Shown piece after piece: positions 43,164 through 61,829 of a stretch of DNA of 64,000 nucleotides. The stretch is from assembly GCA_965660855.1 (NCBI GenBank), contig CBFIBM010000008.1:17079-81078 (forward strand), written 5' to 3'. Both the position numbers and the translations under genes were made by a program. Each line of letters starts with the position of its first letter. Within the stretch, counting starts at the first letter, position 1. A model generated the notes under the pieces. The model was given only the letters and a program-made list of their open reading frames with translations, was not told where the DNA came from and ran no database searches. The DNA comes from an uncultured bacterium (GTDB lineage Bacteria; Fidelibacterota; Marinisomatia; Marinisomatales; UBA1611).

Positions 43164-43405
43164 GTTTTTAAAGTGTCCATTTTATTTAATTTTTGTAGGT
43201 CCGTAAATCCTCCAATATTTTCGCCATTTATAACAATTTGAGGAACTGTTCTACCCCCTGTTATTTTATATAAATCTTCTCTCGACATACCTTCTCTTTC
43301 TATATCAATTTCTTCATAGTCAATACCTTTTTCATTTAAAAGTTGTTTTGCATACTTACAAGGGCCACACCATGATGCGGTATAAACTATAACCTTTTTA
43401 TCCAT
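43160..43405 (-). CDS. grxC: Glutaredoxin (Grx3-like)
   Basis: YTASWCGPC, TVPQI, IGGFTD. Confidence 0.88.
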   Translation of the reverse strand: MDKKVIVYTASWCGPCKYAKQLLNEKGIDYEEIDIEREGMSREDLYKITGGRTVPQIVINGENIGGFTDLQKLNKMDTLKT

Positions 43406-46400
43406 TATTTAATTAATAATATTTTTTGAAACTTGGATTTATTTCCATATTTCGCTAAAACAAAATAAGTCCCAGATCCAACTGAATTTCCAAATTTATT
43501 TTTACCATTCCAGGAAAAAGTATAATTCCCAGGAACAAGCGTACCGATTTGGATTACTGAGATTTCTCTTCCAAGGATATCTAATATACTTATTTGACCA
43601 CTTTCCGTTTTAGATATTGATAATTGTAAAGTGGTTGTAGGATTAAAAGGATTTGGGTAGGGAGGTTTTAAATTAAAACCATGAGGTATGAAATCATCAT
43701 CTATTGATAATGGAGCAACATAATTATCGGGTGCTTCTGTAGTAAACCTAATAATTCTCTCATTTTCTAGTATGGCAGCTCCTGGTGCATAGACATTGTT
43801 AAAGACATATTGGAGTCCGTAATTTTTTTCTGGTGCCTCAATTCCTACAGTTGAATAGTTTTTAGTAACATCAACATCCTGTATTTCCAAATATTGGAAA
43901 TCAATAACACCATTTTCACTTTCAGTTGGCATCGAACTTTGATTGTGTAATATTATTTGAAATGTTTCTTCTGTTATTTCATCATATCCATTTAAAGCTC
44001 TTGACCATTCTATAATGAATTGACCATTTTCCTCATCGTACCATGTGTAAACATTAATCCAGATATCGTTTTGACCATCGCCATCAGTATCTAAGGTTTC
44101 TAAATCATCAGAAAAAGGTGCTAGCAAGGCTTTTGGACCCATATACATAGGTATTGACATGTTCCAAAAATAATTGATATCACAGGGTTCAAAAGATGCC
44201 CATCCATTAGAATTAATAGTAATTTGATTATAGTTGACACCATGATATTTAAATGTAAATGGAAGTTCTAAATCAACATGATCATCATCATCTAATTGAT
44301 GGTGAGTACCAAATAATCCTCCATAATTTGGGTCTAATTCAACCCAATTAAAAGTTGGTGTATTAAGATAACCAGTATCGGTATCATCGTATGCCCAGTA
44401 TCCAAAATTATTTGGTGAAACTGGATAGTTGCTAGAGTTAGGAGCTATTTCCAAAGAAATTTCTTGTGAGTAAATATTTATATTATCTTTCAATAACTCT
44501 ACAAAGAGTGTAATCTGACTCCCATAAGATACATCTGATAGTTCTATATTGTAATTTGTTGAATTTATATGTTCTTCAAAAGGTAAAATATCTAATAAAA
44601 AATCAGTTTCATTCATTTCCATATTAACACCATCAGAAACTGGGGTTAGTTTTATGAAAACTGAATCTATTTTTGAATTGGAAAAATTTGAAAGTAAAAT
44701 AGTTGGTGAAAAGATTTCTCCAGGCGAAGGGTTATTTAGAAAATTTAGATTAAAAGCTAATGGGTTAAAATCTATGCATATTTTTGATATGATATTATTT
44801 TCACTATTCTCTATAGCGGCTACTATTGAGTTTCCTAAATCTGGTTTAAAAGCAGTAAATATTAAATTGTTAAAATTGACGGACTCTCCCGGACTCAGTT
44901 GAGGAAAATTTAATATAAGTTCTTGAGGTAAAACGAAATCAGAGAATTTTAAAATCCCTTCAAACGAACCCGTAGTTTCAGTTTGAGAAGTATTTTTAAT
45001 TTCAAAATTTAAATTTACGGGAGAGCCAAAGGATGGCTGTGCTTCATCATCTTCTAAAATAAATGTAAGGTTCGATAATTTTAATCCTTCAGAACTTTCA
45101 ACTTGAAGAGATTTATAACCTTGAATAAACATTTTTTTATTAGCATAGATATCGATAGGACCCGTATTATCAATATTTAGAGTTGAAACAAATTCCCCAT
45201 TAATATCGGATATACCTTTTTTAAGTATTTGGTCATCTTGCATTATACTTATAACAGCATTAGCTATGCGGTTTTGTTGAGAATCTTCAATAATTAACTT
45301 TATGAACCCATCAATATTGGAAAATTCTTGTATGACAATTTCAAATTGGTTTGGGGTATTTAAATAGACTTGCAAAGAAGGATCACCCAAAATATTATAT
45401 ACATGTGAGTAAAATTCTTGCGCTTCACCTGGGCCCGATTGTGCAGGAAATTCTTTTACTAATCCATACTGTCCAGCTTGCATGGCAGGACCCAATTCAA
45501 CAATTCCATGATTTAACATAGCATCATACATATATGCATTAATTATATTATTATATTTAGTACTTGTATGTAAATCAGAAGGTCCAACAAATGCTACTCC
45601 ACCTTTGGGAACTGTAGGAGTTCCTCCGCGAATTATGGCTTCCGCAAGACATGGGTCTACATTATTTGCAAAATCATTTGAATTACAGACATAACTCATA
45701 AACACTGGAGTTAACCATCCATTATTTAAGTCATTTACATCGTCAACATGGAACTCTGGATAATGCCATCCATTTGCATCTCCCCACCCTCGATAATTAA
45801 CTATACCTGCTCCATTGTTGATTAATGGAATAATATAAGAGGCTCCTTGCTGTATTGGTGGATAAAAAACAGTATCAACCTGACTATAACCAAAATCAAT
45901 TAGCTCATCTCTTAGCCAGTAAGATGTCCATTTTGGGGTTACAGGTATAGGGTATGTATTAGAATAATTACCTGCAACAACAATACCCCTACTTAACCAG
46001 TCAGAATTATATTCAAGTGGGTTTCTTGAGTAGTTGATAGTTTTGGACATTATTACAGCGAGATCAGATAATGAATCAATTGATAATCTACCTATAAACA
46101 CATCGGGAATATTATCATCTCCTAAAAGATATGAATATTTTTGATCTGTCACATCATTTTCAGGTCCATAATAAAATGAAGGTAATTCTGAAAATCCGTC
46201 AACATCTCCTATCAATAAAACATATTCTAACATTGGATCATCTATTAGAATTGAATAAATACTTTCCTTGATTCCTTGGGCTGTTTCACCTGCCTCTGAC
46301 AATGACTTGATATATACATCAAATCCTTGAGATTTTTTAAAAGAAACAAAATCATCTAAGTAGTTTATGATTCCGTCTGGAGCAATTATAAGATAACTGC

Positions 46401-46581
46401 CTCTTTCAGAATTAAATTGAGATGGTAATATGTTATAATTCTCTGATACTAAATAGGAAAAGGATAATGGAACTTTTTGACCAATAATTTGGTCCTTACT
46501 TTTTCCTCTAAAAGACATTGTATCTGCCTCAGTAAAATAAACTATAAATATAAGATATATTAATTTTTTAAAATAACGCAT
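43405..46581 (-). CDS. Peptidase C25 (gingipain)-like secreted protein with C-terminal sorting-type domain, atypical active site
   Basis: YLIIAP, KKSQGFDV, YVLLIGD, PDVFIGRL, NYRGWG, SYVCNS, YNILGDP; C-terminal YPNPFNPTT...GSGTYFV. Confidence 0.8.
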   Translation of the reverse strand: MRYFKKLIYLIFIVYFTEADTMSFRGKSKDQIIGQKVPLSFSYLVSENYNILPSQFNSERGSYLIIAPDGIINYLDDFVSFKKSQGFDVYIKSLSEAGETAQGIKESIYSILIDDPMLEYVLLIGDVDGFSELPSFYYGPENDVTDQKYSYLLGDDNIPDVFIGRLSIDSLSDLAVIMSKTINYSRNPLEYNSDWLSRGIVVAGNYSNTYPIPVTPKWTSYWLRDELIDFGYSQVDTVFYPPIQQGASYIIPLINNGAGIVNYRGWGDANGWHYPEFHVDDVNDLNNGWLTPVFMSYVCNSNDFANNVDPCLAEAIIRGGTPTVPKGGVAFVGPSDLHTSTKYNNIINAYMYDAMLNHGIVELGPAMQAGQYGLVKEFPAQSGPGEAQEFYSHVYNILGDPSLQVYLNTPNQFEIVIQEFSNIDGFIKLIIEDSQQNRIANAVISIMQDDQILKKGISDINGEFVSTLNIDNTGPIDIYANKKMFIQGYKSLQVESSEGLKLSNLTFILEDDEAQPSFGSPVNLNFEIKNTSQTETTGSFEGILKFSDFVLPQELILNFPQLSPGESVNFNNLIFTAFKPDLGNSIVAAIENSENNIISKICIDFNPLAFNLNFLNNPSPGEIFSPTILLSNFSNSKIDSVFIKLTPVSDGVNMEMNETDFLLDILPFEEHINSTNYNIELSDVSYGSQITLFVELLKDNINIYSQEISLEIAPNSSNYPVSPNNFGYWAYDDTDTGYLNTPTFNWVELDPNYGGLFGTHHQLDDDDHVDLELPFTFKYHGVNYNQITINSNGWASFEPCDINYFWNMSIPMYMGPKALLAPFSDDLETLDTDGDGQNDIWINVYTWYDEENGQFIIEWSRALNGYDEITEETFQIILHNQSSMPTESENGVIDFQYLEIQDVDVTKNYSTVGIEAPEKNYGLQYVFNNVYAPGAAILENERIIRFTTEAPDNYVAPLSIDDDFIPHGFNLKPPYPNPFNPTTTLQLSISKTESGQISILDILGREISVIQIGTLVPGNYTFSWNGKNKFGNSVGSGTYFVLAKYGNKSKFQKILLIK

Positions 46582-48872
46582 TTTTTTATTGCCCGTTTAT
46601 TATTTGATTCAATTTGAATAAAATACATTCCTGAGCCGTATTTTGTTTCATTAATGTTTTTAAAATCAAAAACAAAGTTTTTGCTTCCAGGGATCATATT
46701 CAATTTTTTTGAAAATATTTCTTGACCTAAAATATTAAATATTTTTAACTGTTTTACTCCACTGTAGTACTGGTTAAAAGAAATTTGAAATCGACCATTT
46801 GATGGATTAGGACTTATATTACTAATTTTCAAGGGTATTGAAGGGATTGTATTAGTTGAACTATTAGATAGGCTTAAATAGTTATCTTGAACTGAAAATA
46901 ATTTTATTCCAGCTATATCCCAACCTTCATAATTCACACTATTATCTAATAAAAATTTTAATCTGATTTTGACTTGGCTAAAAGTAGAATCATTAATTAT
47001 TGTAAAATAATTATTCACAAAAGTATTATTTGTTGATCCAGATATTTTTTTGTCATATAAAATATTATTATAATTATCAATTATCTGAATATTGATAAAA
47101 TCATGATCCCACTCAGTTTCATACCTATGGTTTAATTGTAAAAGAATCCTATTTTTATTTTCAACATTGATAAAATTTGTTTCTATAATTTGAGAGGAAG
47201 TTAAAGAATCAATATTTGCATAATGCTGATTAAGTTGAGAACTTAAAATGCCATTATTGAACACCCAGAATCCTTGCATCGTTTCCCAAACCCATGGATT
47301 ATCTGAAATCATATTTTCAGATTCTAATATTGGGATATCAATTGACATATTTTGATCAAGGACAATTCTTTTTTCCCAAGGAACTAAATTACTTGCCTCA
47401 TTCATAGGAATCACAATCTGATATTCATCACTATGCAACTCAAAATAATTCTGACTGGTTGTCAGAAGTTCAATAGATATTTCATCAAATTCAGATTTAA
47501 GATGTGCTGTGATAGAAGGAACATCAAAAGCATTATTTAAAATATTTATTTCAAGATTAAACTTTTGAGACGGATCAATAAAAATATCATTATTTGTAAT
47601 ACCACTATTATTTGCTACGGATATAACCTGTTTATCATTATAACCTTTAGCTTTAACTAAAATCGTATAAGTTCCTACATCTAATATTCTTCTATATCTT
47701 CCAAATTCATTTGTTTTTCTTGGGGATAATACTGACCCAGTGTGCTCCAGAATTTCGACAACTGCTCCTTCAATAGGTTGATTTGTTTCACTATCATAAA
47801 TAATTCCAGTAATTTGAGAGGCATCTGCATAATATCCTATAGTTCTATCCATTAAATATATCATAGCAGGTTTTGTTCGCTCTATGGTATTTTCAATTAA
47901 AATACTGTCTGGTTGTAAATTTGCAGTTCCACACTCAACTAAGTACTGAAATGATCCAGTAGCTTTGTAAAACCAATCATGTATTTTACCATTTCGAGAC
48001 CCACTAAAAACCGATAAATAGGTACTAGTTCCATCTTCAGTCGGAATAAGACCAGAGAAATGATCTGATATTTTTTTCATAATATTGAGGTCAGGTGATT
48101 CCTTTACTTCTTCCCACTTCCATGAGGTAAATACTTTCTCTGATAAATTTCCAGATCTAGAACTATGCCACACAATTGAAAATACAAAATCATTTTCAAG
48201 TGCCAAATTTCTCAAGGCTATGGATTCAGATTCTGAAAAAGGTTCTTCTCCTTTGTAGTAATCATAATGGGAACCATAATCAGAATTATCAGGTTCAAGA
48301 AATGTATCTCCAAATGCCCAGTTAAATCCAAAATTTCTATTTAAATCAACTCCATCTACATCATTCCCAATGGATGGATCAAAATCAAAAATACTATTAG
48401 GATATGGACCATTAGGAGAGAAATCTCTTTTATTTTTTCTATAACTAAGATCATGACCATCATGGACTACATTTAATCCTTCTGGGTTTAAGGTTGGAAT
48501 TATCCATATATCTAAATACTCTTTTAAAATATTCATGTGCGTGTTAATGCTGGGGTCTGGAAATAACAAATCATTGATAAGATCAAGTACAATTTCAACA
48601 CCAAGTATTTCTTCAGCATGGACTTGACCTACAAATAATACCCTTGGCTCGTCTTCTTTAATGGATGCATTATCAGAAATTTTAATAGCTATTATTGGAA
48701 TATTCTCTTGAGAGGAATATCCTATTGTATCTATCATTAACCATTCATTTAGTTCTTCGATATTATTCAGAGAATCTAAATATGAATAAATTTCTTGTGT
48801 AGAATGGTATCTACTATCGATTTGTTGGGCAGAAATATAAGATAATAATAATGTAAATAATATTTTATTCAT
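46560..48872 (-). CDS. M14 zinc carboxypeptidase with CP-regulatory-like domain and C-terminal sorting-type domain
   Basis: QVHAEE (HxxE), NPEG, RKN, GVDLNRNF, VWHS, LVECG; GIIYDSETNQPIEGA; SPNPSNG...GMYFI. Confidence 0.88.
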   Translation of the reverse strand: MNKILFTLLLSYISAQQIDSRYHSTQEIYSYLDSLNNIEELNEWLMIDTIGYSSQENIPIIAIKISDNASIKEDEPRVLFVGQVHAEEILGVEIVLDLINDLLFPDPSINTHMNILKEYLDIWIIPTLNPEGLNVVHDGHDLSYRKNKRDFSPNGPYPNSIFDFDPSIGNDVDGVDLNRNFGFNWAFGDTFLEPDNSDYGSHYDYYKGEEPFSESESIALRNLALENDFVFSIVWHSSRSGNLSEKVFTSWKWEEVKESPDLNIMKKISDHFSGLIPTEDGTSTYLSVFSGSRNGKIHDWFYKATGSFQYLVECGTANLQPDSILIENTIERTKPAMIYLMDRTIGYYADASQITGIIYDSETNQPIEGAVVEILEHTGSVLSPRKTNEFGRYRRILDVGTYTILVKAKGYNDKQVISVANNSGITNNDIFIDPSQKFNLEINILNNAFDVPSITAHLKSEFDEISIELLTTSQNYFELHSDEYQIVIPMNEASNLVPWEKRIVLDQNMSIDIPILESENMISDNPWVWETMQGFWVFNNGILSSQLNQHYANIDSLTSSQIIETNFINVENKNRILLQLNHRYETEWDHDFINIQIIDNYNNILYDKKISGSTNNTFVNNYFTIINDSTFSQVKIRLKFLLDNSVNYEGWDIAGIKLFSVQDNYLSLSNSSTNTIPSIPLKISNISPNPSNGRFQISFNQYYSGVKQLKIFNILGQEIFSKKLNMIPGSKNFVFDFKNINETKYGSGMYFIQIESNNKRAIKKCVILKN

Positions 48873-48875
48873 GTT

Positions 48876-51800
48876 TTACTTTAAATATGTTATTTTACCT
48901 CTGTATATATTTGATTTTGATTTAAATACATAAAAATATAATCCACTTGATACGGTCGTTCCATTTATCATTTTTCCATCCCAAGAAATTCGGTGGTGAC
49001 CCTCTGTATTCGGTAAAATAAGTTTGCTAGTAATAATTTTACCATTTAAGTCATAAATAGTAAAATCTAATGGTTCTTCACTCGGGACAAAATAATCAAA
49101 TGATATTAAACCATTAAATGGATTGGGATATGCACTATTAAGTGAAAATTTGCGGGGAATTTCACAGTCGATACAAGGTTCCTTGACTGTTAAATATTCT
49201 GACTTTGTGATTATTCGCCCATAATAGTTTGCCAAATCTTCTTTACCAGAGCTTCTATAATCTACCCAATCAAGGAGATATTCAGAGTTCTGGTAATTTG
49301 TTATATTTACATTTTGCTGCTTATGGTATGCTATACAAACTGGAGTACCATTAACTTCAGTTGTCATACCATTTCCCAGAATAAATCCGCTTCCATATAA
49401 ATCTACACCATTGATTAGCAATGGATCATCATTGTAATATCCTCTTCCATCTTCCCAAACGATAAAAAATTCGTCATCCATAAGATGCTTAACCAGTGGA
49501 TTAAATTGATCAGTCGTATCATTAGAAAATTGTATCTCATTGCCACTAATCAAACCATTTTGAAGATTCAAAACATTTGCAAAGATTTCAAAATCTGAAC
49601 CATTTCTGTAATCCTCCCATATTATTAATGAGTGGGTCTTACTTTCATTAATATCAAAAGATATATTTCCTTGATCGTTATCAGCATCTGATATTACTAT
49701 TCCACTAGCTGAAAATTGCAAATTACCATTCCAATCTATAACCTGAGCATATATATCTGAAAAGTTTCCATCTTGGTTCCAAATCGCCAACATTCCTACT
49801 TCTTCATCAATAACTTTTACCTGTAAGTTTCTTGAGTCATACTGAGAAATACTTAGTTGATTTCCATTTGGATTCCAACCTATTTCAACATTACCATCTG
49901 AATCAATTTTTGTAAATTTTAAACTTGCTGCTGGCCAAGCATCCTCTAACCAAAATATTATAAATTTATTATCTCCAGTAGGAATTATTTCAACGATATA
50001 ATCATCTCCATTTGAATCAACTAATTCTATACCTTGATCAACCAAAGCAATTGAACCATCAGAATTTAATCTTTGGTAATAAATATTATAGTTAAACCCT
50101 CTACTCTCAGACCAGAAACATCCAATACCATCACCGATTTCTTGTAATTTAACACTTCTCATATCAAATACAGCTGAAAGAGCAACTCCAGAGGAATCCC
50201 ATAAGTTATTTAAATTATCATCAACCTTATTTATTCTTAGAAATTTTGGTGATGACGCCCCATCGAAAGTCGCAGTGTAAAAATTATTGTTAGATTCAAT
50301 ATAAAATGGGGTTGAAAAATCTGTTTCAGATGATGAGTTATCACCATAAGTTAATTGCTTACCATTTAACGTATCTACCTCTGAATTAAGAATTCTAGTA
50401 CTAAATATCTTTTTAGATGCCCTGTTATCCTCCCATACTAAATATACATCATTATCTGCGATTTTAAAGGTTTTGGTATAATTTATATCGCCATCTAAAC
50501 CTTTCATTACCTCTAAACCATTATTTTGCCACTCAGGTTGATAATCTGTATTTATTTTTTGTACTTTTAAATCTATACTTCCATTACCTTGATCTCCGTA
50601 AATGATAAATAATCCACTGGAATTGTTACCCATAATAGCAGGTGAATATTGATACCCTAATTCTTGATTAATCGAAATAGGTTCATTATGTATTGCAGTT
50701 CCATCAGATGTGATATTTTGATACATAATATCGATTTCAGGAAATGATCCTCTCTCCCATACTACATTTACCCCACCATTATCATCTGGTGCAAACCTCG
50801 CACTAAAATCAGGTAGATTTGAAGGATCAACCCTTACACCATCATTCCATTCTGTATCACCATCTATATTTACTTTTTGAAAATATTGATCACCATCAAT
50901 TGGGTCATCTCTAAGATCTTTCCAATTAACGAAAATCTCTCCAAGAGTGCTTCTTTTGACCCTTGGTGCTGTTTGAATAGATTCACTTGAAGAAATCTCT
51001 TTTGCTGTTTCAAATAAAACCCCATCAGAGTTTATAAATTGATATAAAACCTTAGAATCTTCATCACCAACCTTCCAACATAAAAAGGAAGTGTCATTAT
51101 TTACAAATGTTGCTCGAGGTTTTAACTCTTGTTCTTCAGTACCAGCAATTTGAAAACCATTTTCTTCAAATTGCATAACCATATCGATACCGAATCTTTG
51201 TCCATAAATATTTGCATTAGCACCTTCTCTAAAATCAGTCCATGCAATAAATGCTTCATTATTCCCAGCATATTCAATAGTTTTAGAATTTTGACTTCCT
51301 CCTTGAACTACTATTGGATAACCAGTGCCTGGGGCTCCTATGGTATAATCTGAAGAAACATGAGTTCCATAAATATCATCATCTATACCACTTCTTTTAT
51401 CCTGCCATGTAACAAAAACACCACCTAAACTATCCGTACACATATTTATAGTAATTTGTTTTCCTGGAACATCAGCTAGGGCAACACCGTTAGGATCCAT
51501 TAAGATTACTCCTTCGGAACTAATATGCTGAATAAAAATATCACCTTGAGCATCAAAGCGGTAATCAACCCATGCAATAAATGCACCTCCTGATCCGTCA
51601 GTAATCGAAACTGGATCTTCTTGTCTTCCAGGAAGATTTGTAATGGTAGCACCATTATCACCCCATAATAATTCACCATTTTGATTAATTTTATGTGCAA
51701 AAATGTTCCTCATTCCAAATCTGGTATCAGACCATACGAAAATTGATTCGCCTTCATTACCTGAAGCTAGGGTTCTATACCATTCAATGTGGACACCTTG

Positions 51801-51884
51801 TCTTATTGGTGCGCCATCACCACTATCAAAATTTATTGACATCAAAATCGATGAGAATAAAATTATTATTGATATATATTTCAT
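48876..51884 (-). CDS. Large secreted repeat protein (probable beta-propellers) with C-terminal sorting-type domain
   Basis: About 15 repeats of G-x-F-I-x-W-x-D-x-R...(D/N)I(Y/F)xQ; C-terminal AYPNPFN...WDG...SSGLYFY. Confidence 0.7.
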   Translation of the reverse strand: MKYISIIILFSSILMSINFDSGDGAPIRQGVHIEWYRTLASGNEGESIFVWSDTRFGMRNIFAHKINQNGELLWGDNGATITNLPGRQEDPVSITDGSGGAFIAWVDYRFDAQGDIFIQHISSEGVILMDPNGVALADVPGKQITINMCTDSLGGVFVTWQDKRSGIDDDIYGTHVSSDYTIGAPGTGYPIVVQGGSQNSKTIEYAGNNEAFIAWTDFREGANANIYGQRFGIDMVMQFEENGFQIAGTEEQELKPRATFVNNDTSFLCWKVGDEDSKVLYQFINSDGVLFETAKEISSSESIQTAPRVKRSTLGEIFVNWKDLRDDPIDGDQYFQKVNIDGDTEWNDGVRVDPSNLPDFSARFAPDDNGGVNVVWERGSFPEIDIMYQNITSDGTAIHNEPISINQELGYQYSPAIMGNNSSGLFIIYGDQGNGSIDLKVQKINTDYQPEWQNNGLEVMKGLDGDINYTKTFKIADNDVYLVWEDNRASKKIFSTRILNSEVDTLNGKQLTYGDNSSSETDFSTPFYIESNNNFYTATFDGASSPKFLRINKVDDNLNNLWDSSGVALSAVFDMRSVKLQEIGDGIGCFWSESRGFNYNIYYQRLNSDGSIALVDQGIELVDSNGDDYIVEIIPTGDNKFIIFWLEDAWPAASLKFTKIDSDGNVEIGWNPNGNQLSISQYDSRNLQVKVIDEEVGMLAIWNQDGNFSDIYAQVIDWNGNLQFSASGIVISDADNDQGNISFDINESKTHSLIIWEDYRNGSDFEIFANVLNLQNGLISGNEIQFSNDTTDQFNPLVKHLMDDEFFIVWEDGRGYYNDDPLLINGVDLYGSGFILGNGMTTEVNGTPVCIAYHKQQNVNITNYQNSEYLLDWVDYRSSGKEDLANYYGRIITKSEYLTVKEPCIDCEIPRKFSLNSAYPNPFNGLISFDYFVPSEEPLDFTIYDLNGKIITSKLILPNTEGHHRISWDGKMINGTTVSSGLYFYVFKSKSNIYRGKITYLK

Positions 51885-51905
51885 TAAAATTCCTTTTAAA
51901 ATAGT

Positions 51906-52940
51906 TTATAAATTTAATTTTAAAATCTTGATACCTTCTCTTGTACAAGTAAGAAGCTGTTGATTCCAAAACTTAGTCTTGTATGTATAACCCACAGAAA
52001 AAATACCTTTTTCAATTGGATTTGTTGGATCAGTTATATCATAAATAGCAGTCCCTCTAGAGCCAATAGACAATACTGCTATGTTATCTTTTATCGAAAT
52101 ATGATTTACAGTTAAATCCTCTGCAAATCTATAACCCATTTCACCAGTTGGAAAATTAGGGTAAGGGATGTATACTGCTCCTGCATTATCACATGCCACA
52201 AATACACCTTCTCCTGAGATTGCAGTGGAAAGTGCATTCCCTTGAGTGTTTACCCTTCCTATGAAATTTATTTCAGAGCCTAGGGAATCTATTGAAAAAA
52301 GCTCAACACCCATTTGATCAACAGCCATGGTGATTTTAGAAAATCCATCAGAATCAATGCCCATAGATTTACCTGGGGTGTATATTTCTGATCCATCAAT
52401 AGGTGTCCATTCTATAAATTCTATACCAAATAAATTAGTTGTATCTAAACTATACTTACCCCATTTGAGACCATCATCATTATCCGCTGTATACATTATG
52501 AATTCATCAAGTTTATTTGAGAAAACCACGTAATCTTTTGTTCGAGCGCTCATAATAGTATTTCTGTATCTAAGACTGTCTGCTTCATCTAGATTGTATA
52601 TCATTACATCTTTATTTGATTCAGAAACAAAAACTAGGTTGTTTTTTGAATTATGTTCAATCAGTGAAATATCTTCAAATTCTAAAAAAGCGCCTCCTTC
52701 ATAATAACCATAAAAACTTTTTATTAAAGCCTTTGAAGTAAGATTCCATATTTGAACACCTGACTGACCTGCTGCAACAAAAGCAGTATCATTTTTTATT
52801 GAGACATCTCTAGCAAACCCATTTGTCTCTAAAGTTGATATTATATCATAAGACCATAAATCTTCATCATTTGGTTCCATACAGCCTGAAAACATCAAAA
52901 TTAAAATTATAATATATATTTTATCTTTAATAATTGTCAT
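51906..52940 (-). CDS. LVIVD-repeat-like beta-propeller lipoprotein
   Basis: Lipobox FSGC; GFARDVSIKNDTAFVAAGQSGVQIWNL; AIYDITDPTNP. Confidence 0.65.
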   Translation of the reverse strand: MTIIKDKIYIIILILMFSGCMEPNDEDLWSYDIISTLETNGFARDVSIKNDTAFVAAGQSGVQIWNLTSKALIKSFYGYYEGGAFLEFEDISLIEHNSKNNLVFVSESNKDVMIYNLDEADSLRYRNTIMSARTKDYVVFSNKLDEFIMYTADNDDGLKWGKYSLDTTNLFGIEFIEWTPIDGSEIYTPGKSMGIDSDGFSKITMAVDQMGVELFSIDSLGSEINFIGRVNTQGNALSTAISGEGVFVACDNAGAVYIPYPNFPTGEMGYRFAEDLTVNHISIKDNIAVLSIGSRGTAIYDITDPTNPIEKGIFSVGYTYKTKFWNQQLLTCTREGIKILKLNL

Positions 52941-53952
52941 AATCTATTTTCCATTCAATAGTAATCCAAGTTTGAATTTGGTTAAAGCTCTTTAAATCAG
53001 AAACCCACTTGTATGAGGAAAATGTATCTCTTTTCCTATATCTAAATTTAAAATTTAATTTTAATCCATCTGAGATGTATTTTTTTATCCATAAATCATA
53101 TTTATAGTCTCTATGACTTCTTCCAGAATGTAGAGGATCGTTAAAATCTTCTGCATCATATAGTCGATTTTCATTTCTATATGAGAAACCAAACTCATCA
53201 ATAGTATTAATTTTCTTTTTTATTATCAGAGGTAAATACATTTCAGTAGACTTGTAGGATCTATCAAAGCTACTTGGTTTCAACGGAAATTCTCCTGAAG
53301 TACTTTTTGCATTACCATATTCATACTGTATTCCAAAAATCCCAATATTTTTTAACTTATAGTTATGTTTTGCTCTTATAAAAATAATATCCAAGTCAAA
53401 TTCTGTAAATGGTTTATCATAATATCTTTGTATATAACCTAATGTCAAAATAGACCAAGAATTTTTATAATACCTTTGAGAAATAGAAATATTCTGATTC
53501 CTATCATTGAAAAAACACGGACTATACAAATCATTACTAACATCTCGATTAATATAGTGTCTTAAATAAAAGCTATTTAAATGTCTTATTTGATATTTTA
53601 TATTTTTATATCCACCCCACTTATATATGAGGTCACCTCCACTACTCCAATATTTTTTTTCTTTATTATTTCGGTAATCTGAAAAAGTAAAATTTCCTCT
53701 TAAAATAACTTCATTCTTTTTAACTTTGTACAACGACTTTTGACCTTTTAATCCATATTTAAAAACATAGCTATCAAAAGTAGTTGTTCCTCCTAAGATC
53801 TCTGGGCTAAGAACGGCATCAGAGAAGTCTCGATCAGAAAATCTCATGACATTATTATCATAACCAGATGTAAAACTCAATGTATACTCAAAAGGAGTTG
53901 AACCAAAAACTGTGGATAGTATGAGTAATTTTAAAAAAAATTTATTCATCAA
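52927..53952 (-). CDS. Probable outer-membrane beta-barrel protein
   Basis: Signal peptide; GYDNNV N-terminal strand motif; aromatic-rich alternating strands; terminal strand WITIEWKI. Confidence 0.55.
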   Translation of the reverse strand: MMNKFFLKLLILSTVFGSTPFEYTLSFTSGYDNNVMRFSDRDFSDAVLSPEILGGTTTFDSYVFKYGLKGQKSLYKVKKNEVILRGNFTFSDYRNNKEKKYWSSGGDLIYKWGGYKNIKYQIRHLNSFYLRHYINRDVSNDLYSPCFFNDRNQNISISQRYYKNSWSILTLGYIQRYYDKPFTEFDLDIIFIRAKHNYKLKNIGIFGIQYEYGNAKSTSGEFPLKPSSFDRSYKSTEMYLPLIIKKKINTIDEFGFSYRNENRLYDAEDFNDPLHSGRSHRDYKYDLWIKKYISDGLKLNFKFRYRKRDTFSSYKWVSDLKSFNQIQTWITIEWKIDYDNY

Positions 53953-54827
53953 TATAAAATAAAACGAGTAAGCACAGTTTTTCCCTTATCTAGAACTTCA
54001 ACAAAGTAAGAATGTTTGCCTTTTGGAACTTTAATTTCACAAGATCTCCATTTTCCAGGTACTATATCATCTTTACCTATAATTTTAGATGCAGAAGATC
54101 TTTCGGTATTAAAGTAATATGTTCCAATAACTTTACTACCTTCTTTTACCCTGATTCTAAATGATTCTTGTTGTCCCATTGATTCAGTAAATTCCAGACG
54201 ATTCATTATTTTAAGAATATTTTCCCCATTTGTTTGAATTTTTAGAGGTAGAGTCGGTGAACACTCAAAGTATTCTATTATTTTATTTCCACTAACTAAT
54301 GAAACTGAATTTTTATGTATTGAAGGAGTAATGATTTTCTTCTTCTTTCCAGGATTTTCAAATTCTTTTGACAATACTCTAACTAATGTGGGTAGTTTTT
54401 GATCTGAGTTCTCCAAAATTTCAATTTTATTTTGACCTTTATCTAAATTAATAAAATAATTTCCAGAAAAGGTATAATTATGCTTAGGGTGCTGCACAGA
54501 TCGTACTGCTCTTTGAATTTTATATTTGTGTTTAACAGTTATTGTGTCTTTTTCATTTAATACAATCTGGTACGAATATGGATAGCTTTTCTTTTTTTTT
54601 CTAAGAACAGGAAATCTTGAGATAAATTCTAATCTTTTAGGTCCACTTATAGAAAACACAAGACCTTCTGGTTTAACAGGATAATAAAGCCTTCGTTTTG
54701 AATTAATGATTAAAATCTCTTTTTCTTCACCATTTTCAGTTGGCTTAATAAGTTTACCACTTAAAGGAGTTACCAATAAAAATAGTAAGATTGGTATAAT
54801 TATTTTATAATAAACTATCTGGTTCAT
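53949..54827 (-). CDS. Exported basic protein with two tandem beta-rich domains
   Basis: Signal peptide; halves share a Y...(S/N)G...L....R...(Y/F).I pattern; Lys/Arg-rich. Confidence 0.55.
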   Translation of the reverse strand: MNQIVYYKIIIPILLFLLVTPLSGKLIKPTENGEEKEILIINSKRRLYYPVKPEGLVFSISGPKRLEFISRFPVLRKKKKSYPYSYQIVLNEKDTITVKHKYKIQRAVRSVQHPKHNYTFSGNYFINLDKGQNKIEILENSDQKLPTLVRVLSKEFENPGKKKKIITPSIHKNSVSLVSGNKIIEYFECSPTLPLKIQTNGENILKIMNRLEFTESMGQQESFRIRVKEGSKVIGTYYFNTERSSASKIIGKDDIVPGKWRSCEIKVPKGKHSYFVEVLDKGKTVLTRFILY

Positions 54828-55956
54828 GTTGAGTTAAATGCTCTTTTATTTTTTGTTTACTTTGGAAACCGATCAATAAAACGTATCCTACTATTAATAA
54901 TAAACAGAAGGTAACTACTATTAAATTATATCTTTCAACAGCGTATAGGCTTCCAATTCCAATTTCAGGAACCGGAATTGGTGCAAATTGCATATTATAC
55001 TGTTCAATTAGAGGCTTTATATTAAGTATATGTAATCCTAAAACATTTGATTTAATGAACCGAGAAAAAACGCCTTCGATACCTCCGGATCTTTCAATCT
55101 TGTTAATGTCAGAACGATTAACAACTCCCGGTGATAATAATTTCAAATTAAATGATGTACCCAAGCTAGCTACACCACCGCCAATATTTATTATAGCTTT
55201 ATATGAATCTATGGAAGCATACTTTTTATATTGCTCCATTCTATATAAAATATTATCATTCAATCTATTCTTTTTTATCAATGGAATATTATATTTTGAA
55301 ATATTTTCAATTATCAAATCTCTTCCAGCTGGAGATAAAAGCCTGCCCATATCATTTCTACCTCCTATTGAAGCTGCAATACTTACCGATGGAATTAATT
55401 CTTTTTCAAAAAGAATTCTTTCCATATCAAGCCATGTAAAATCAATTTGATTTGCGCCCCATTGTGATGCACCAACACTGGATATAGTTATAGGTATTAA
55501 TCCAAGTGATTTGCAAGCAGTCAGTACAGCAATATTTGCACCAGGCATTGATCCAGTCATAAGAATTGCTACAGTATCATTCTTCTTTAAACTTAATTGA
55601 GACATGAGGTCAACAATGATTGCAGAAAAATTAGGATCTAAAGTTGTCAATTTTGCATCGAGATCACCTTCATCTGTTGTAATCAAACTAAATGGCCCAC
55701 CAACCAAACCTGTTTCATTTGGATCATTTTCACTATCGATAAAAATACTCTGCTCCATTCTATGGTTTTTTAATTCATTCATTGCAGTTTTCATTAATTT
55801 TGCTGCTTTAATTTTAGAGGTATATGAGGGCGATACTTCTATCGTTTTCATATTTATACTAATGATAAAACAAATAAGACTTAATATTGAAAGCAATACA
55901 AGAGTTGATGTTTTTTGTATAGCAGGAATAAAAGGAGTATTTTTATAGTTGTTCAA
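54805..55956 (-). CDS. pgsW: Poly-gamma-glutamate system protein PgsW
   Basis: DPNETGLVG, ITTDEGDLDAK.TT.DPNF, TGSMPGANIA, SVGASQWGAN, TWLDME, INIGGG; follows pgsC; likely TTG start at 55956 after GGGGGAG. Confidence 0.85.
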   Translation of the reverse strand: MNNYKNTPFIPAIQKTSTLVLLSILSLICFIISINMKTIEVSPSYTSKIKAAKLMKTAMNELKNHRMEQSIFIDSENDPNETGLVGGPFSLITTDEGDLDAKLTTLDPNFSAIIVDLMSQLSLKKNDTVAILMTGSMPGANIAVLTACKSLGLIPITISSVGASQWGANQIDFTWLDMERILFEKELIPSVSIAASIGGRNDMGRLLSPAGRDLIIENISKYNIPLIKKNRLNDNILYRMEQYKKYASIDSYKAIINIGGGVASLGTSFNLKLLSPGVVNRSDINKIERSGGIEGVFSRFIKSNVLGLHILNIKPLIEQYNMQFAPIPVPEIGIGSLYAVERYNLIVVTFCLLLIVGYVLLIGFQSKQKIKEHLTQHEPDSLL

Positions 55957-56392
55957 AAAGAACTCCCCCAAAAATTAACATTACAGAAAGTTTTACTATT
56001 ACTGCCGTAAGTAGAACCACAGAGAGTGTTCGCATTACCCCTTGTCTGTCCATCCAGTTTGCAATTAGACCTGGAATAATATTTCCAATTACTGCTACAG
56101 ATCCGAGGTCAGATTGTATAAAAATTAAATTTCTTGAGATATAACCAAAGAAAAAGCCTAGAATTAAAGCTAGTACGATTCTCCTTTTACCATAAAGAAA
56201 GATATATTTCCCAAGTATTTGAATAATCCCCCAAACTATTAATGCTACCAAAAAAGTAGATAACACTTGGTACGGCTGGTGTAAATAAAGAGAGACATAA
56301 CCGGGTACTATGATACCTCCAGCAGTGACACCTAAAGTCTCAGATAGGACAAGACTAAGGACAATACCTAAACCAATACTTACTTCAATCAT
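55943..56392 (-). CDS. pgsC: Poly-gamma-glutamate biosynthesis protein PgsC/CapC
   Basis: GIVLSLVLSETLGVTAGGIIVPGY, LYGKRR, IGNIIPGLIANWMDRQG. Confidence 0.93.
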   Translation of the reverse strand: MIEVSIGLGIVLSLVLSETLGVTAGGIIVPGYVSLYLHQPYQVLSTFLVALIVWGIIQILGKYIFLYGKRRIVLALILGFFFGYISRNLIFIQSDLGSVAVIGNIIPGLIANWMDRQGVMRTLSVVLLTAVIVKLSVMLIFGGVLFEQL

Positions 56393-57560
56393 TAATTCGG
56401 AATCTTGAGATTAACTTAAGAATTTCCTGACCTGCTCCAACCTGATTTCCAATTGCATAAATAATAGATTTATTAGGTAAATCTTCAATATATTGGATGG
56501 ATATTTCTAATGGTTTCTCTAAATCAAATGTTTGAATTCTGGTATCGGGTGAAAGCAAAGAAAGTTCACCAATAACTTTATTAAGCTTATTACCTCTAAT
56601 AATAAGATAATTAGGTTTTATGCTTTCTAAAGTGAGCTTAATCATTTGCATTGTTCTTATTGGCCTATCCTCTCTAGAGTTTAAAAAAACACAGGTATTT
56701 CTTTTTAATCCGTATCTGCTATTAATATATTTCCAAATATCTAAAGTTGACACAGGGTCATTAGCAGCCATACCATTAATAAATATATATTTATTTGATT
56801 TTAAAATTAAATCCCATGCAATTAATGCACCATCATCAGGTTGAACCTTATACATTCCTTTAAGCGCAGTCTCTCTCTTTATTCCAACTTCTTTGCATAC
56901 ATCTAAAGCAATTGCAATATTAGAAGGATGCTCCATATATTTGAAGGAATTTATTTCTTTTTCTGATATTTCTTTTGGGTTAGAATTAATCATCTTGGAA
57001 TTATTTTGAGCTGCTACGGCCTTTAATAAATTTGGCTTTTGTTCCTCTGCAGTAATAAATATCCCATTAACTGGAACAGTATTACATAAGGAATAAGCTA
57101 CATCATCTTCTGTTGGTCCCATTTCTTCTAAGTGATCAGGCCTCACATTGGTAATTACTCCAATATGAGATTTTACCATTTGATGTTCTGCAATCCATTG
57201 ATATTGCGGTTGAACTGCCATACATTCAATCACTACGGCATCAGGTTTTTGAGATGCAAAATAACGAAGAAGTTTAACCTGTTCCCCAATAGATGGTAAT
57301 CTAAGCCTGTGTATAATTCGATCTTTACCTTCATGATCTATAACCCTTGGGGCAGTACCAGTAGTCTTTGCAAATGTTCGCAGACCGCCTTGTCGTAGCC
57401 CCGCAGCAATTAAACGAGTTACGCTAGATTTACCTCTTGTTCCATTTACATGAATTCTTAATGGTAACATACCAAGCGATCGATTATGAAATTGGAACTC
57501 GATTAAACCTGCAATACAGAGGGATATTGCTAAGGCACCTAATAAATATAGGGGCGTCAT
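56385..57560 (-). CDS. pgsB: Poly-gamma-glutamate synthase PgsB/CapB
   Basis: IHVNGTRGKSSVTRLIAAGL, KTTGT, ECMAVQP, ITNVRPDHLEEMGPT, NGMAANDP, NSREDR. Confidence 0.95.
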   Translation of the reverse strand: MTPLYLLGALAISLCIAGLIEFQFHNRSLGMLPLRIHVNGTRGKSSVTRLIAAGLRQGGLRTFAKTTGTAPRVIDHEGKDRIIHRLRLPSIGEQVKLLRYFASQKPDAVVIECMAVQPQYQWIAEHQMVKSHIGVITNVRPDHLEEMGPTEDDVAYSLCNTVPVNGIFITAEEQKPNLLKAVAAQNNSKMINSNPKEISEKEINSFKYMEHPSNIAIALDVCKEVGIKRETALKGMYKVQPDDGALIAWDLILKSNKYIFINGMAANDPVSTLDIWKYINSRYGLKRNTCVFLNSREDRPIRTMQMIKLTLESIKPNYLIIRGNKLNKVIGELSLLSPDTRIQTFDLEKPLEISIQYIEDLPNKSIIYAIGNQVGAGQEILKLISRFRIND

Positions 57561-57591
57561 TGTAATATTTTTGTATGGCTAATTTTTTGAA

Positions 57592-60500
57592 TTAACCTTC
57601 ATATCTCATAATAGTCCTAATCAATGAAATTAAATCCATGACATTCACCATATTATCACCATTTATATCTGCAAAGAATGCATTTATCTCGCCCTCATAT
57701 CCTAGGTTGTAATCCACTAACAACATTAAATCATTGACATCAACAATACCATCATAGTTTAAATCACCTTCAAGCCTAACATCGCTTCCTCTAGTTGTAA
57801 TTAAAATAGATGTTTCATCTGATAAACTACCGGCAGAGGTATGATAGGTATTATTGAATGTATATTGTAGACCATCTGTCATTGTATGGTCTTCTATTCC
57901 AACAGTGCAGTAATCTCCATGAATCTGATCCCATCCATATGATCCATATGAAGTATTATTAAATTCTTTGTACTGAATTAGAATGTCACCATCACCCGTA
58001 GGAGTTGGATAATAGCTGGGATCAAAGAGTACAACCTGGAATGATTCTCTTGAATTATTTTGATAAGTACGAAGTTCAGACCATTCTACGTAAAACTTTT
58101 TACCTATTTCGTCAAACCATGTATACACCCTTCCACCATTTGTTGTTTTTAAATCGTCCCAAAAAACTGCTACCATAGCCCTAGGTCCACCAGTTCCTGG
58201 CATAGTATAGTTTCGAAAAGATTCCATAGGTGTAGATCCCATTGATATCCAACCATTTGAACAGACACTAATTTGATCATAGTCTTGACCATAAAAACTA
58301 AAGGTAAATGGTAAATCAACAAGGATAACATCGTCTCCATTATTTCCAGCATCTGATAATCCACCTAAATGAGTACCTGGACCACCTTCCCTATCATCAA
58401 TTTCAACCCAGTTGTAAACCGGTGCTAACGTATAGTCAATATCTTCATTACCATATATGTAATATCCATGTGAATCAGGTCCTACCGGATCCGTTACAGT
58501 TGCTGCACCAATCTGGAGAGATACCATAGAATTAGATGTATATCCATCTTCTGTTTCAATATTTACTACCAAATGTGCGATTGTTCCAGGAATTGTCCCT
58601 TCTAGCGCTTTTATCTCAAAATTATTTTCATCATTATACTCAGAACTTCCTGAAGAAATGGATGACCAGGTTCCAGAATTGTCCAATATTTCAATGAATG
58701 GAGAAGAGGATGTAATGGTTCCAGATATAGACTCCGATCCGATACTTCCTTCATTTTTCAAACCTATATCAACCTGAGATGTCGAACCTGGATTAAGTAT
58801 ATCTGAGGCTGAACCAACTATTTCTAAGTTACTAGCACTTATCTTATTTCCAGAAACGAATACATTTAATATTCCTGTAAAATCATTACCACTATCATCA
58901 ACCAAATCAACTATAATTTCTAAATTATTACCATCTTCAATACCATCTCCAAGAATTAATAAAAATGGATCGGTATTGGTAACACTTTCATTTGGCAATA
59001 AATCACCATAAGTAATTGTGTTTAAAGGAATATTAACACTACTATTTTGAGTTGATAATGTTGCAGTTATACCTGATGCATTTTCAGATCCATAATTTGT
59101 AATTGTTAAGTAACTTTCTAAAGTTTCTCCACTATTTGCTATTGAATTTGAATTTCCAATTGAGCCACCTGTGTTATCATCGATTATTAAAAGAGGATTT
59201 TCAGAAACATTTAACGATACCCCCGGATCATAAATTTGGAAAGAGTTTTGATATGGATAGTGATTTTTCTTGGTTACTGTTACTAAAACTTCCCCTGTCT
59301 GATTTGTAGTAATTGGCAGACGAACAAAACCTTGATCATTTGTATACCCTGACTCCACCATTACACCGTCCATCAATATTGTCACCCACGCATCTTCTAC
59401 ATGTCCCAATTCTTTTGAAACATTAATATCTATGAAATTTGTTCCTTTAGTAACAGCATAAGAATGATTAACTGTTGTTAATTCTGGAAATGAACTCCAC
59501 ATTTGTAGAGATGATTCTCCCATTAGACTATTCCAATGAACAAAAATATCAGAAAAATTATTAGGGTTATCTGGATATATTTCATACAGAAGCATTTTAC
59601 CATACATCAATGCACCACCAGCAGAATTAATATCTTTTATTAAACTCCCATAATAAAATCCCATATCAACAATATTATTGAACATTGTATGTGTACCTGT
59701 GGTCGCTGTGCCAACGCAAACAACTGAACCCTTAGGATTTGATGAGGTTCCAGCTCTAATAAAAGCTTCAGACATTGCTTCCTCTTGACCAAAGGAACCT
59801 GTTCCACAAGTAATAACGGTAGCTACAGGTAACATAAAACCATTTGATGTACCATTTATGTCATTATTACTAAAACCACTCACTCCATAAAAACCTCTAT
59901 AATTGAAAAAAGAAACACCGTCAGTAATACCTGATTGCATTTGGCTTGGAAAAGAACCACCATAAATAGTATTGACTTCTTCAAACCCTACCATGTCAAG
60001 GATTTCATGAATAGCTTCATTTGTTATAACACATGATATACCTGATGTGCTTTGATCACCTACTAAGCACGCACGCTCAAACCAGTTTTCGTTCATGTAT
60101 GGATTAGATTCATAATTAATGGTTTTACTTACAATTGTATTTAAATGTGAACTGGTTTCGAAAGATAAACGACCAATAAAAACCTCAGGAAAATTATCAT
60201 TCCCTTCAAGTGTAGTATAAGGATGATCCCCATCTCCATTATACCCACTTTGTGATTCATTCCAAGTTGGAATATCATAAGAACCTGTGACATCACCAAC
60301 TATATTGACATGCACCGGAGGATTATCCCATGATTCATATGCATCTTCGATATAATTTTTTAAGTTGTTTCTATTATTCACAACATTAGAGCTTGAAACA
60401 AAATTAACTTCATAACCTACTCGCTCTTTCCATTTCATAAGTTGCTCAATCGTGCCAAAGAGATTTCCAATATTATTTGGCAAGACATAAAGTATCGATG

Positions 60501-61176
60501 GTCTTTGATATTCTACCTCATCCCTATTCAAGGTATTATAATTCACTACGGTAGCTTCATACAACTTTTCAAATTCTCTAGATATTTTTCTTGGTACAAA
60601 TGGAATGTTTTCAGACTCTATTTCTATTAGAGAAATTTCAGCATCTTTAATAATGGTAAGTTCTCTAGTTGAAGGATTATATTGAAATGGCGTCATAGCT
60701 ATTTGAACCATTACAAGATCTCTCATTACAATTGGTTCTGAAGCATTAATAATTTCTTGTGGAAAAATATTATTTTGAGAATAGACCACGCCTTTAACAG
60801 GATTACCTGTCAAATTACGACCCCACCCTTCGAGTGGCAAAATATCAATATTTTGTACAACTTCTTGTTCATGAATTACTAACTCAACATTCAATTTTTT
60901 CCCAGGATCAACTGCGTACATAGTAGTAACAGTTGGTAAAAATGGTTCTCCAGGCAATGCTACTGAACCTGCATTTTCAATTGTAGGTTTGATGAAATTT
61001 TCACCATTCACATCCATATGTTTTAATTCATAATTAATATTTTTGAATCTCAATTTCTGTTCATTAAGAACACTCGTAAATTCAAATCCATTATGGATTT
61101 TATCAGTAATTCTTTCAGCATAAGCACATACAGTTACTAAAAGTAAAAATCTAAAAATTTGGTAAAGTCTATTCAT
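57592..61176 (-). CDS. Peptidase C25-like secreted protein with propeptide-like N-terminus and C-terminal dockerin-like repeat, atypical active site
   Basis: GEPFLP...TPFQYNP propeptide-like region; WKERVGY, IVGD, PEVFIGRL, NYRGFYG, VITCGTG; C-terminal GDLNYDGIVDVNDL...ADINGDNMVNVMDL. Confidence 0.8.
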   Translation of the reverse strand: MNRLYQIFRFLLLVTVCAYAERITDKIHNGFEFTSVLNEQKLRFKNINYELKHMDVNGENFIKPTIENAGSVALPGEPFLPTVTTMYAVDPGKKLNVELVIHEQEVVQNIDILPLEGWGRNLTGNPVKGVVYSQNNIFPQEIINASEPIVMRDLVMVQIAMTPFQYNPSTRELTIIKDAEISLIEIESENIPFVPRKISREFEKLYEATVVNYNTLNRDEVEYQRPSILYVLPNNIGNLFGTIEQLMKWKERVGYEVNFVSSSNVVNNRNNLKNYIEDAYESWDNPPVHVNIVGDVTGSYDIPTWNESQSGYNGDGDHPYTTLEGNDNFPEVFIGRLSFETSSHLNTIVSKTINYESNPYMNENWFERACLVGDQSTSGISCVITNEAIHEILDMVGFEEVNTIYGGSFPSQMQSGITDGVSFFNYRGFYGVSGFSNNDINGTSNGFMLPVATVITCGTGSFGQEEAMSEAFIRAGTSSNPKGSVVCVGTATTGTHTMFNNIVDMGFYYGSLIKDINSAGGALMYGKMLLYEIYPDNPNNFSDIFVHWNSLMGESSLQMWSSFPELTTVNHSYAVTKGTNFIDINVSKELGHVEDAWVTILMDGVMVESGYTNDQGFVRLPITTNQTGEVLVTVTKKNHYPYQNSFQIYDPGVSLNVSENPLLIIDDNTGGSIGNSNSIANSGETLESYLTITNYGSENASGITATLSTQNSSVNIPLNTITYGDLLPNESVTNTDPFLLILGDGIEDGNNLEIIVDLVDDSGNDFTGILNVFVSGNKISASNLEIVGSASDILNPGSTSQVDIGLKNEGSIGSESISGTITSSSPFIEILDNSGTWSSISSGSSEYNDENNFEIKALEGTIPGTIAHLVVNIETEDGYTSNSMVSLQIGAATVTDPVGPDSHGYYIYGNEDIDYTLAPVYNWVEIDDREGGPGTHLGGLSDAGNNGDDVILVDLPFTFSFYGQDYDQISVCSNGWISMGSTPMESFRNYTMPGTGGPRAMVAVFWDDLKTTNGGRVYTWFDEIGKKFYVEWSELRTYQNNSRESFQVVLFDPSYYPTPTGDGDILIQYKEFNNTSYGSYGWDQIHGDYCTVGIEDHTMTDGLQYTFNNTYHTSAGSLSDETSILITTRGSDVRLEGDLNYDGIVDVNDLMLLVDYNLGYEGEINAFFADINGDNMVNVMDLISLIRTIMRYEG

Positions 61177-61826: not shown

Positions 61827-61829
61827 TTT

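Follow-up and report, generated by a model that had tools for sequence, protein, structure and literature searches.

What purpose is served by two gingipain-like proteins that have kept the catalytic cysteine of their family, have lost its catalytic histidine, and are encoded in a gene cluster for the synthesis of poly-gamma-glutamate (PGA)? The question is raised by a stretch of 64,000 nucleotides, here called the window (positions 17,079 to 81,078 of the forward strand of contig CBFIBM010000008.1, GenBank assembly GCA_965660855.1), which comes from an uncultured bacterium placed in the Fidelibacterota (Marinisomatia, Marinisomatales, UBA1611). Its source genome measures 2.09 Mb and is 84% complete, and the names attached to homologues of the window's proteins are Candidatus Marinimicrobia or Neomarinimicrobiota. 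The two proteins, P0001 (1058 amino acids (aa); 43405..46581) and P0002 (1194 aa; 57592..61176), were delimited from their open reading frames (ORFs), Pfam matches and, respectively, a TIGR04183 match and a phmmer alignment with the gingipain RgpB; they lie on the minus strand, as do all features given below unless stated otherwise. We find that they represent two branches, W-type and F/Y-type, which diverged long ago within one His-less clade of peptidase family C25 (clan CD), and that they are fixed members of the PgsB-PgsC-TIGR04332 gene cluster. We give roughly an even chance to the reading that both are surface enzymes whose Cys would attack gamma-glutamyl bonds in PGA, either trimming the polymer or tethering it.

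By sequence and by fold, both proteins belong to C25. The gingipain-fold domain of P0001 (residues 58-420; 45322..46410) matches PF01364 at E 7.6e-56, that of P0002 (residues 242-534; 59575..60453) does so at E 2.9e-42, and phmmer aligns the two proteins with RgpB at E 7e-26 and 4e-19 (4.4e-19 for the P0002 domain). An AlphaFold2 model of P0001 residues 58-420, with a mean predicted local distance difference test score (pLDDT) of 96, superposes on RgpB (1cvr) with a template modelling (TM) score of 0.87, a Z score of 47 and a root-mean-square deviation (rmsd) of 2.2 Å over 345 residues, and on Kgp with a Z score of 45. Together these gingipains of Porphyromonas gingivalis (PDB 1cvr, 4ief, 4rbm and 6i9a) share with the model the same two-subdomain catalytic fold, at an rmsd of 2.2-2.5 Å over about 344 residues. 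Also as in RgpB and Kgp are the position of the Cys, the N-Y-x-G-x-G frame, the N-terminal propeptide of P0002 and an Ig-like domain after the catalytic domain. That the genes are pseudogenes or artefacts was rejected: both ORFs are intact and conserved in dozens of genomes, and the models reach pLDDT values of 93-96.

It is at the active site that the proteins depart from the gingipains. In phmmer alignments with 1cvr and 4ief, the RgpB segment N207-Y-T-G-H211-G pairs with NYRGWG in P0001 (residues 262-267; 45781..45798) and with N-Y-R-G-F in P0002, part of the motif NYRGFYG (residues 425-431; 59884..59904). The site of His211 is therefore taken by Trp266 and Phe429, each with an Arg two residues ahead of it (Arg264, aligned with RgpB Thr209, and Arg427). 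The catalytic His is printed as His221 in PMC4357240 and as His211 in PMC10882967; the His-Gly pair of RgpB, which follows the third strand, sits at position 211, and in both proteins His is absent at 211 and also at 221. The nucleophile, by contrast with the His, has been retained: Cys299, in SYVCNS (residues 296-301; codon 45685..45687), and Cys457, in VITCGTG (residues 454-460; codon 59806..59808), both align with RgpB Cys244. An earlier sequence-only reading of the window had described the replaced His, the Arg before it and the kept Cys; the alignments bear out the replacement in both proteins, and the motifs are present as it described them, at coordinates that differ from its own by one base.

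The pattern extends far beyond the window. A search of 1.84 billion cluster representatives returned 7168 matches at E <= 0.001, and from the best 150, which represent clusters at 50% identity, 146 representatives of at least 300 aa were aligned with P0001 and P0002 to give 148 rows. In the column of RgpB His211 none of these rows carries His; the residues found are W (109 rows), F (22), Y (5), A (4), L, G and T (2 each), C (1) and R (1). The Arg two residues ahead of this site, to which the sequence-only reading had drawn attention in two proteins, proved near-invariant (147 of 148 rows) and is followed by Gly in every row, while the Cys, likewise conserved across the family, stands in 146 of 147 rows. 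Downstream lies a third feature, the motif T339-x-T341-x-x-N344-N345, of which the first Thr is found in 125 rows of the same alignment, the second in 132, the first Asn in 144 and the second in 131, with Asp at the last position in another 16. P0001 shows it within SDLHTSTKYNN (residues 335-345; 45547..45579) and P0002 within TGTHTMFNN (residues 493-501; 59674..59700), the T-H-T-x-x-N-N form of the F/Y subfamily, so that both carry all three features of the clade: Arg-Gly before a residue other than His, the Cys, and the T-x-T-x-x-N-N(D) loop. The His-less pattern is a family trait and not chance or a local oddity. Among the names borne by members are Marinimicrobia, WOR-3, Eisenbacteria, Cloacimonetes, Delongbacteria and Krumholzibacteria (7 named among 20 representatives checked), and they have in common a propeptide-like N-terminus, the catalytic domain, Ig-like repeats, a NIDO-like domain and an anchor module.

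How these proteins relate to one another is shown by a quick maximum-likelihood tree, built from 75 catalytic domains by a short search without bootstrap. It comprised 38 of the 146 representatives, chosen by hand so as to be well spread, together with 33 ORFs taken from 21 of the 59 metagenome loci described below and four proteins of the window's genome. The W, F/Y and GRGW types, 63 rows in all, group together in a single clade with a Shimodaira-Hasegawa-like approximate likelihood ratio test (SH-aLRT) support of 98, and no His-bearing row falls within it. P0001 groups with W-type proteins in a set of 11 rows (support 99) and P0002 with F/Y-type proteins in a set of nine (support 100), where the second paralogues found at pgs-linked loci of other lineages also fall. 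The window's genome has three further C25 genes, all His-bearing: the gene for PorU, the sortase of the type IX secretion system (T9SS), on contig C29 (SYIGHGS...GTCSFG; NF033707 E 1e-178, 596 bits, cut-off 420), a near copy of it at a contig end, and a canonical gingipain-like paralogue (NYTGHGS...VACVNG) with a propeptide and, judged by eye from the sequence, a dockerin-like C-terminus. Since PorU is intact and another paralogue has the canonical His/Cys pair, loss of the His is not an organism-wide trait. A third paralogue type, 'YRGQG', falls outside the main His-less clade. Three such paralogues keep the Cys and are without the T-x-T-x-x-N-N loop (L118:14293-17718, L120:9071-10972 and L131:14300-17689); their genes adjoin GRGW-type genes, 8-9 kb downstream of pgsBC.

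The genomic setting is as constant as the motifs. In the window a run of overlapping or tightly packed genes on the minus strand comprises type IV pilus genes, P0002, pgsB, pgsC, the TIGR04332 gene, three unnamed genes, a gene for a T9SS cargo protein, an M14 gene and P0001. The gene pgsB, encoding poly-gamma-glutamate synthase (56385..57560; TIGR04012 E 2.5e-122, 408 bits, cut-off 222.7), starts 32 bases past the end of P0002 and is followed by pgsC (55943..56392; TIGR04011 E 7.3e-33; PF14102) and by the gene for the poly-gamma-glutamate system protein TIGR04332 (54805..55971; E 6.9e-86); the distance downstream from pgsC to P0001 is 9.4 kb. Both C25 genes are thus in the same-strand cluster, and its layout is conserved. 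Among the best 80 of 295 loci with a P0001 orthologue, all of them from Marinimicrobia, 47 reach at least 9.3 kb upstream, and of these 45 have the TIGR04332 gene and 43 have pgsC. These loci were found by motif patterns drawn from the closer alignment set, and because they were retrieved in this way they cannot serve to test the conservation of the motifs themselves. Genes adjacent to pgsB, by contrast, were picked by position and not by motif, and all 20 of them read NYRG, a residue other than His, and Cys.

Co-occurrence was followed, by hand counting, through a sample of 201 genomes of the phylum, in which the family was defined as full-length matches with a best E <= 1e-120 and high-scoring PgsB as matches of at least 330 bits. 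The family is present in 69 genomes; high-scoring PgsB occurs in 63, and in two more as copies cut by contig ends, and all 65 are among the 69. None of the 132 genomes without the family has high-scoring PgsB, and 126 genomes have neither family nor PgsB. Within one genus (g16) both features are found in one genome and neither in three others. Six family-less genomes (G032, G064, G072, G109, G122 and G148) give a weak PgsB-like match of 232-257 bits, just above the cut-off, which may represent a different enzyme of Mur-ligase type. A family gene lies within 30 kb on the same contig, and always on the same strand, at no fewer than 53 of 67 pgsB places, and within 3.5 kb upstream of pgsB at no fewer than 34; both counts are lower bounds, being drawn from the best 150 of 618 family matches, and may be compared with the roughly 2% of such a genome that a 60-kb span would cover by size alone.

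The same linkage is seen in other lineages. A metagenome scan with the 'EHWSH' subfamily, whose members carry the names Krumholzibacteria and Eisenbacteria, returned 59 loci, of which 39 hold a His-less C25 gene; pgsB, pgsC or the TIGR04332 gene is found in the flanks of 22 of these 39, or of 22 of 28 if the 11 loci that end within about 1 kb of the gene are set aside. At loci with a His-bearing C25 gene, which are mostly short contigs, pgs genes were found in none of nine. A second, F/Y-type paralogue occurs in 18 of the metagenome loci, and all 18 have Arg-Gly and Cys and lack the His. The sequence-only reading had made its case depend on an association of NYRG-type C25 proteins with pgs loci, and the association found is strong both within and outside Marinimicrobia. 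That each locus has two paralogue types suggests, moreover, that the two perform different tasks.

If the His is gone, what has become of the site around the Cys? According to PMC4357240, substrate P1 residues are bound in RgpB by Asp163, Gly210, Gly212, Gln282 and Trp284, S1 specificity in clan CD is set by alpha1/L1, L4 and L5, and the S1 pocket of the caspases (C14A), which share the clan CD fold, is made basic by Arg residues that suit Asp, an acidic P1; PMC10882967 places Thr209 of RgpB close to bound inhibitors. By phmmer alignment Arg264, at the position of Thr209, lies on loop L3 beside Gly210, His211 and Gly212, and the T-x-T-x-x-N-N motif takes the place of the L5 stretch with Gln282 and Trp284. 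Unlike RgpB, then, the family has Trp or Phe for His211, a near-invariant Arg for Thr209 and the new loop in place of the S1 Asp163 and the Gln282/Trp284 loop; unlike these proteins, the caspases keep the His/Cys dyad and bear their Arg residues on L1 and L5, not on L3 by the position of the His. The nucleophile has thus been retained while the pocket about it was remodelled and the new form then conserved, which argues that the site is still in use and has not decayed.

The substrate of such enzymes would be PGA at the cell surface. Through the Arg on L3 and the Thr and Asn residues on L5, the pocket would hold a gamma-linked glutamate by its free alpha-carboxylate; attack by the Cys would yield a gamma-glutamyl thioester, and this would be resolved by water, which amounts to trimming or release, or by an amine, which amounts to tethering. 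The relocated acid/base may be the His or Asp that in most members flanks the first Thr of the L5 motif. A downstream His in both proteins had already been pointed out by the sequence-only reading. It precedes the first Thr in P0001 (H-T-S-T) and stands between the two Thr in P0002 (T-H-T), that is, in different columns; His is found at either L5 column in 96 of 147 rows, and His, Asp or Glu in 126 of 147. Within the P0002 subfamily the T-H-T His is conserved, in 19 of the 20 pgsB-adjacent genes of the phylum and in 15 of the 18 second paralogues of the metagenome loci, and the claim accordingly stands for that subfamily and not for the family as a whole. A relocated acid/base on L5 is possible on these alignments.

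Several observations weigh against a catalytic role in PGA handling. Neither His nor Asp/Glu is present at the two L5 positions in 21 of 147 rows, and the family alignment contains no invariant column of His, Asp or Glu, the highest count of His in any column of the catalytic domain being 77 rows. The acidic S1 residue that gives RgpB its specificity for Arg and Lys, Asp163, has no conserved acidic counterpart: it aligns with Pro216 of P0001, in a Thr-Pro stretch where the loop alignment is uncertain. Glu152 of RgpB, which we take to be the third member of its triad, aligns with Tyr in a column that is not conserved as acid. The propeptide loop that plugs S1 in RgpB, with an Arg at chain position 107 of 4ief_A that presumably corresponds to Arg126 of the proform, is variable in this family, is without a conserved acidic residue and is missing in many W-type members. 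That Arg264 and the His would lie close to the Cys is drawn solely from the alignment with RgpB. On the genomic side, four family-bearing genomes (G183, G027, G076 and G100), 85-92% complete, show no PgsB, and pgs genes are absent from six metagenome loci (L107, L108, L113, L114, L115 and L123) whose flanks measure 2.8-10 kb. The counts overstate independence, because genomes of one phylum are kin, and a gene of the gamma-glutamyltransferase (GGT) family and a PGA_cap domain are found elsewhere in the window's genome.

These points bear on a rival reading that we hold to be a real possibility, if a less than probable one, namely that the proteins are pseudo-proteases in which a non-catalytic module, its former S1 pocket lined by Arg, binds PGA or another anionic ligand and thereby retains or organises the coat. 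The loss of the catalytic His in all 148 rows with no invariant replacement base, together with the loss of its partners in the RgpB site, fits such a binder, as do the large non-catalytic parts, with Ig-like repeats, NIDO-like domain and anchor modules that are typical of surface scaffolds; linkage to pgs genes suits binding and catalysis equally. What a binder explains poorly is the free Cys, kept in all but one of 147 rows at no more than 50% identity, which is hard to account for without chemistry, and the C25 propeptide, kept by P0002 and many relatives, which in RgpB guards the active site.

A narrower form of the surface-enzyme reading, which we consider unlikely, is that the proteins are anchoring transpeptidases like CapD, which would cleave PGA and join it to an amine acceptor at the outer surface, much as PorU transfers T9SS cargo. 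PorU is a C25 protein and a proven transpeptidase, and so sets a precedent within the family for transfer instead of hydrolysis. It is of the same family and fold class as P0001 and P0002 and, like them, exported; yet neither protein matches the PorU model NF033707 at E <= 0.01, the P0001 model reaches only a Z score of 16 with PorU (6za2), far below the values for RgpB and Kgp, and the genome's own PorU keeps its His. The idea of a PorU-like transpeptidase, raised by the sequence-only reading, is weakened accordingly, and no acceptor is known. In favour of its proposal that the proteins substitute for CapD, Pfam and TIGR profile searches found neither PgsA nor CapD among the operon's proteins. 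Another contig of the genome, however, has a gene of the GGT/CapD family (PF01019, E 1.5e-162; C7:40955-42499), and because of it the C25 genes of the operon need not replace a missing CapD; the proposal is weakened and no longer forced. CapD and GGT (PF01019), which anchor and cleave PGA in Bacillus, resemble P0001 and P0002 in proposed role only, both acting or proposed to act on gamma-glutamyl bonds of PGA outside the cytoplasm by way of a carboxylate-binding Arg. GGT, an Ntn hydrolase, attacks through a Thr and binds the carboxylate by an Arg; its fold and nucleophile are unrelated to those of C25, and the Pfam search found no PF01019 match in P0001 or P0002. One chemical consideration favours transfer: a computational study (PMC10882967) has the catalytic His of RgpB assisting water-dependent deacylation, and for this reason loss of the His should disfavour hydrolysis more than aminolysis.

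Least probable, and in our view improbable, is that the proteins are ordinary secreted proteases in which a different base does the work, with a possible preference for Glu or Asp at P1; they would break down proteins as food or process the other secreted proteins of the operon, and their link to pgs genes would come only from co-regulation of surface functions. In its favour, annotation makes them C25 cysteine peptidases, surveys of metagenome-assembled genomes (MAGs; PMC8359207) include such genes among extracellular peptidases, and a pocket Arg would suit an acidic P1. Against it, same-strand linkage to pgsBC runs across families of the phylum and other lineages, and a canonical His/Cys C25 protease with propeptide is already present in the genome.

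The remaining parts of the two proteins suit a place at the cell surface. In P0001 a signal peptide is followed by the catalytic-fold domain, Ig-like repeats, a NIDO-like beta-sandwich that is conserved across the family (43687..44439) and a T9SS type A sorting domain (43417..43659; TIGR04183 E 3.7e-7, 30 bits, cut-off 23; FlgD_ig 34.1 bits). P0002 begins with a signal peptide and a C25 propeptide (residues 41-183; 60628..61056; PF08126 E 1.3e-19; RgpB pro-domain 4ief_A E 3.9e-11), continues with the catalytic-fold domain, Ig-like repeats and a NIDO-like domain (about 57700-58500), and ends not in a TIGR04183 domain but in a type I dockerin (57610..57768; PF00404 E 2.6e-7). Both proteins are accordingly predicted to be exported, P0001 by its T9SS sorting domain and P0002 by signal peptide and dockerin. 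As to a cohesin partner for the dockerin, there is a marginal PF00963 match only (22 bits, contig C2). The NIDO-like domain, of about 250 aa, is common to both proteins and to the whole family and is predicted to be a beta-sandwich (pLDDT 93); since no solved relative was found (best Foldseek E 0.19; best Z 4.8 in a wide VIA search), it gives no functional clue.

The other genes of the run may be concerned with the same polymer. Between the TIGR04332 gene and the M14 gene lie u292, u341, u344 and a gene for a 1002-aa T9SS cargo protein (48876..54827), which match no named family and are syntenic across the Marinimicrobia loci. The TIGR04332 protein has membrane segments at both ends, u292 has a signal peptide, u344 a lipobox (FSGC), and u341, which has a signal peptide and ends in ...IDYDNY, resembles an outer-membrane barrel; together with the TIGR04332 protein these three (51906-55971) may make up a route by which PGA is exported across two membranes. 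In metagenome loci of other lineages, too, pgsBC is followed by weak tblastn matches to u292, u341 and u344. The M14 gene encodes a zinc carboxypeptidase with a T9SS sorting domain (46560..48872; PF00246 E 2.1e-30) and stands directly upstream of the P0001 orthologue in all 68 Marinimicrobia loci with enough flank. M14 enzymes include carboxypeptidases that trim polyglutamate, and this protein is a candidate exo-trimmer of PGA. At the other end of the run, type IV pilus genes for a T2SSE ATPase, a T2SSF platform protein and an A24 prepilin peptidase (61185-63928; Pfam) directly abut P0002 on the same strand. Just outside the operon in the window, as in most Marinimicrobia loci, is a gene for an MXAN_6640-family HExxH metalloprotease with a T9SS sorting domain (40642-42285, plus strand; NF045524 E 3.8e-54). 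The PGA_cap (CapA-like) domain mentioned above is part of a 1591-aa open frame (contig C7 of the window's genome, G000, 61284-62162, minus strand) that has no linkage to the pgs operon. Four metatranscriptome libraries, drawn from four studies, yield contigs that span 20 to 30 of the 30 bins of the 17.8-kb stretch, which is compatible with expression of the operon and weak evidence for it, given that DNA carry-over could also explain these contigs.

Taken to its full extent, the surface-enzyme reading would make the clade a new catalytic version of the clan CD fold, in which the Cys works without the canonical His, with an Arg on L3 and a relocated His or Asp on L5, is specific for gamma-glutamyl bonds, and provides a second, non-GGT class of enzyme for tethering or sizing a PGA coat on the outer surface of diderm bacteria that bear a T9SS; this larger claim we put forward tentatively, as one that is more doubtful than probable. 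To our knowledge no PGA capsule machinery has been described for diderm, T9SS-bearing bacteria. Literature searches, with supplements outside their scope, found no description of a His-less C25 family or of its link to pgs genes, and the literature on poly-gamma-glutamate and gingipains, including PMC8542988 as far as its text was available, does not link the two.

The setting of these genes, a polyglutamate operon in free-living marine bacteria, differs from the proteolytic virulence locus of the gingipains, and the difference has consequences for how the family is counted. Its genes are annotated 'C25 family cysteine peptidase', and C25 genes are included among the extracellular proteases from which carbon degradation is inferred in MAGs of Marinimicrobia, Cloacimonetes and similar uncultured groups (PMC8359207). 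If the family indeed serves a polyglutamate coat, protease counts of this kind would be inflated, and an abundant ocean lineage would possess a surface polymer system that has gone undescribed. For enzymology, a clan CD fold in which the Cys is kept and the His is lost in every sampled member offers a clean test of whether a catalytic dyad has been rewired or a nucleophile has been kept for some other purpose. For PGA biology, P0001, P0002 and their relatives are candidates for the attachment or trimming of the polymer in bacteria with an outer membrane.

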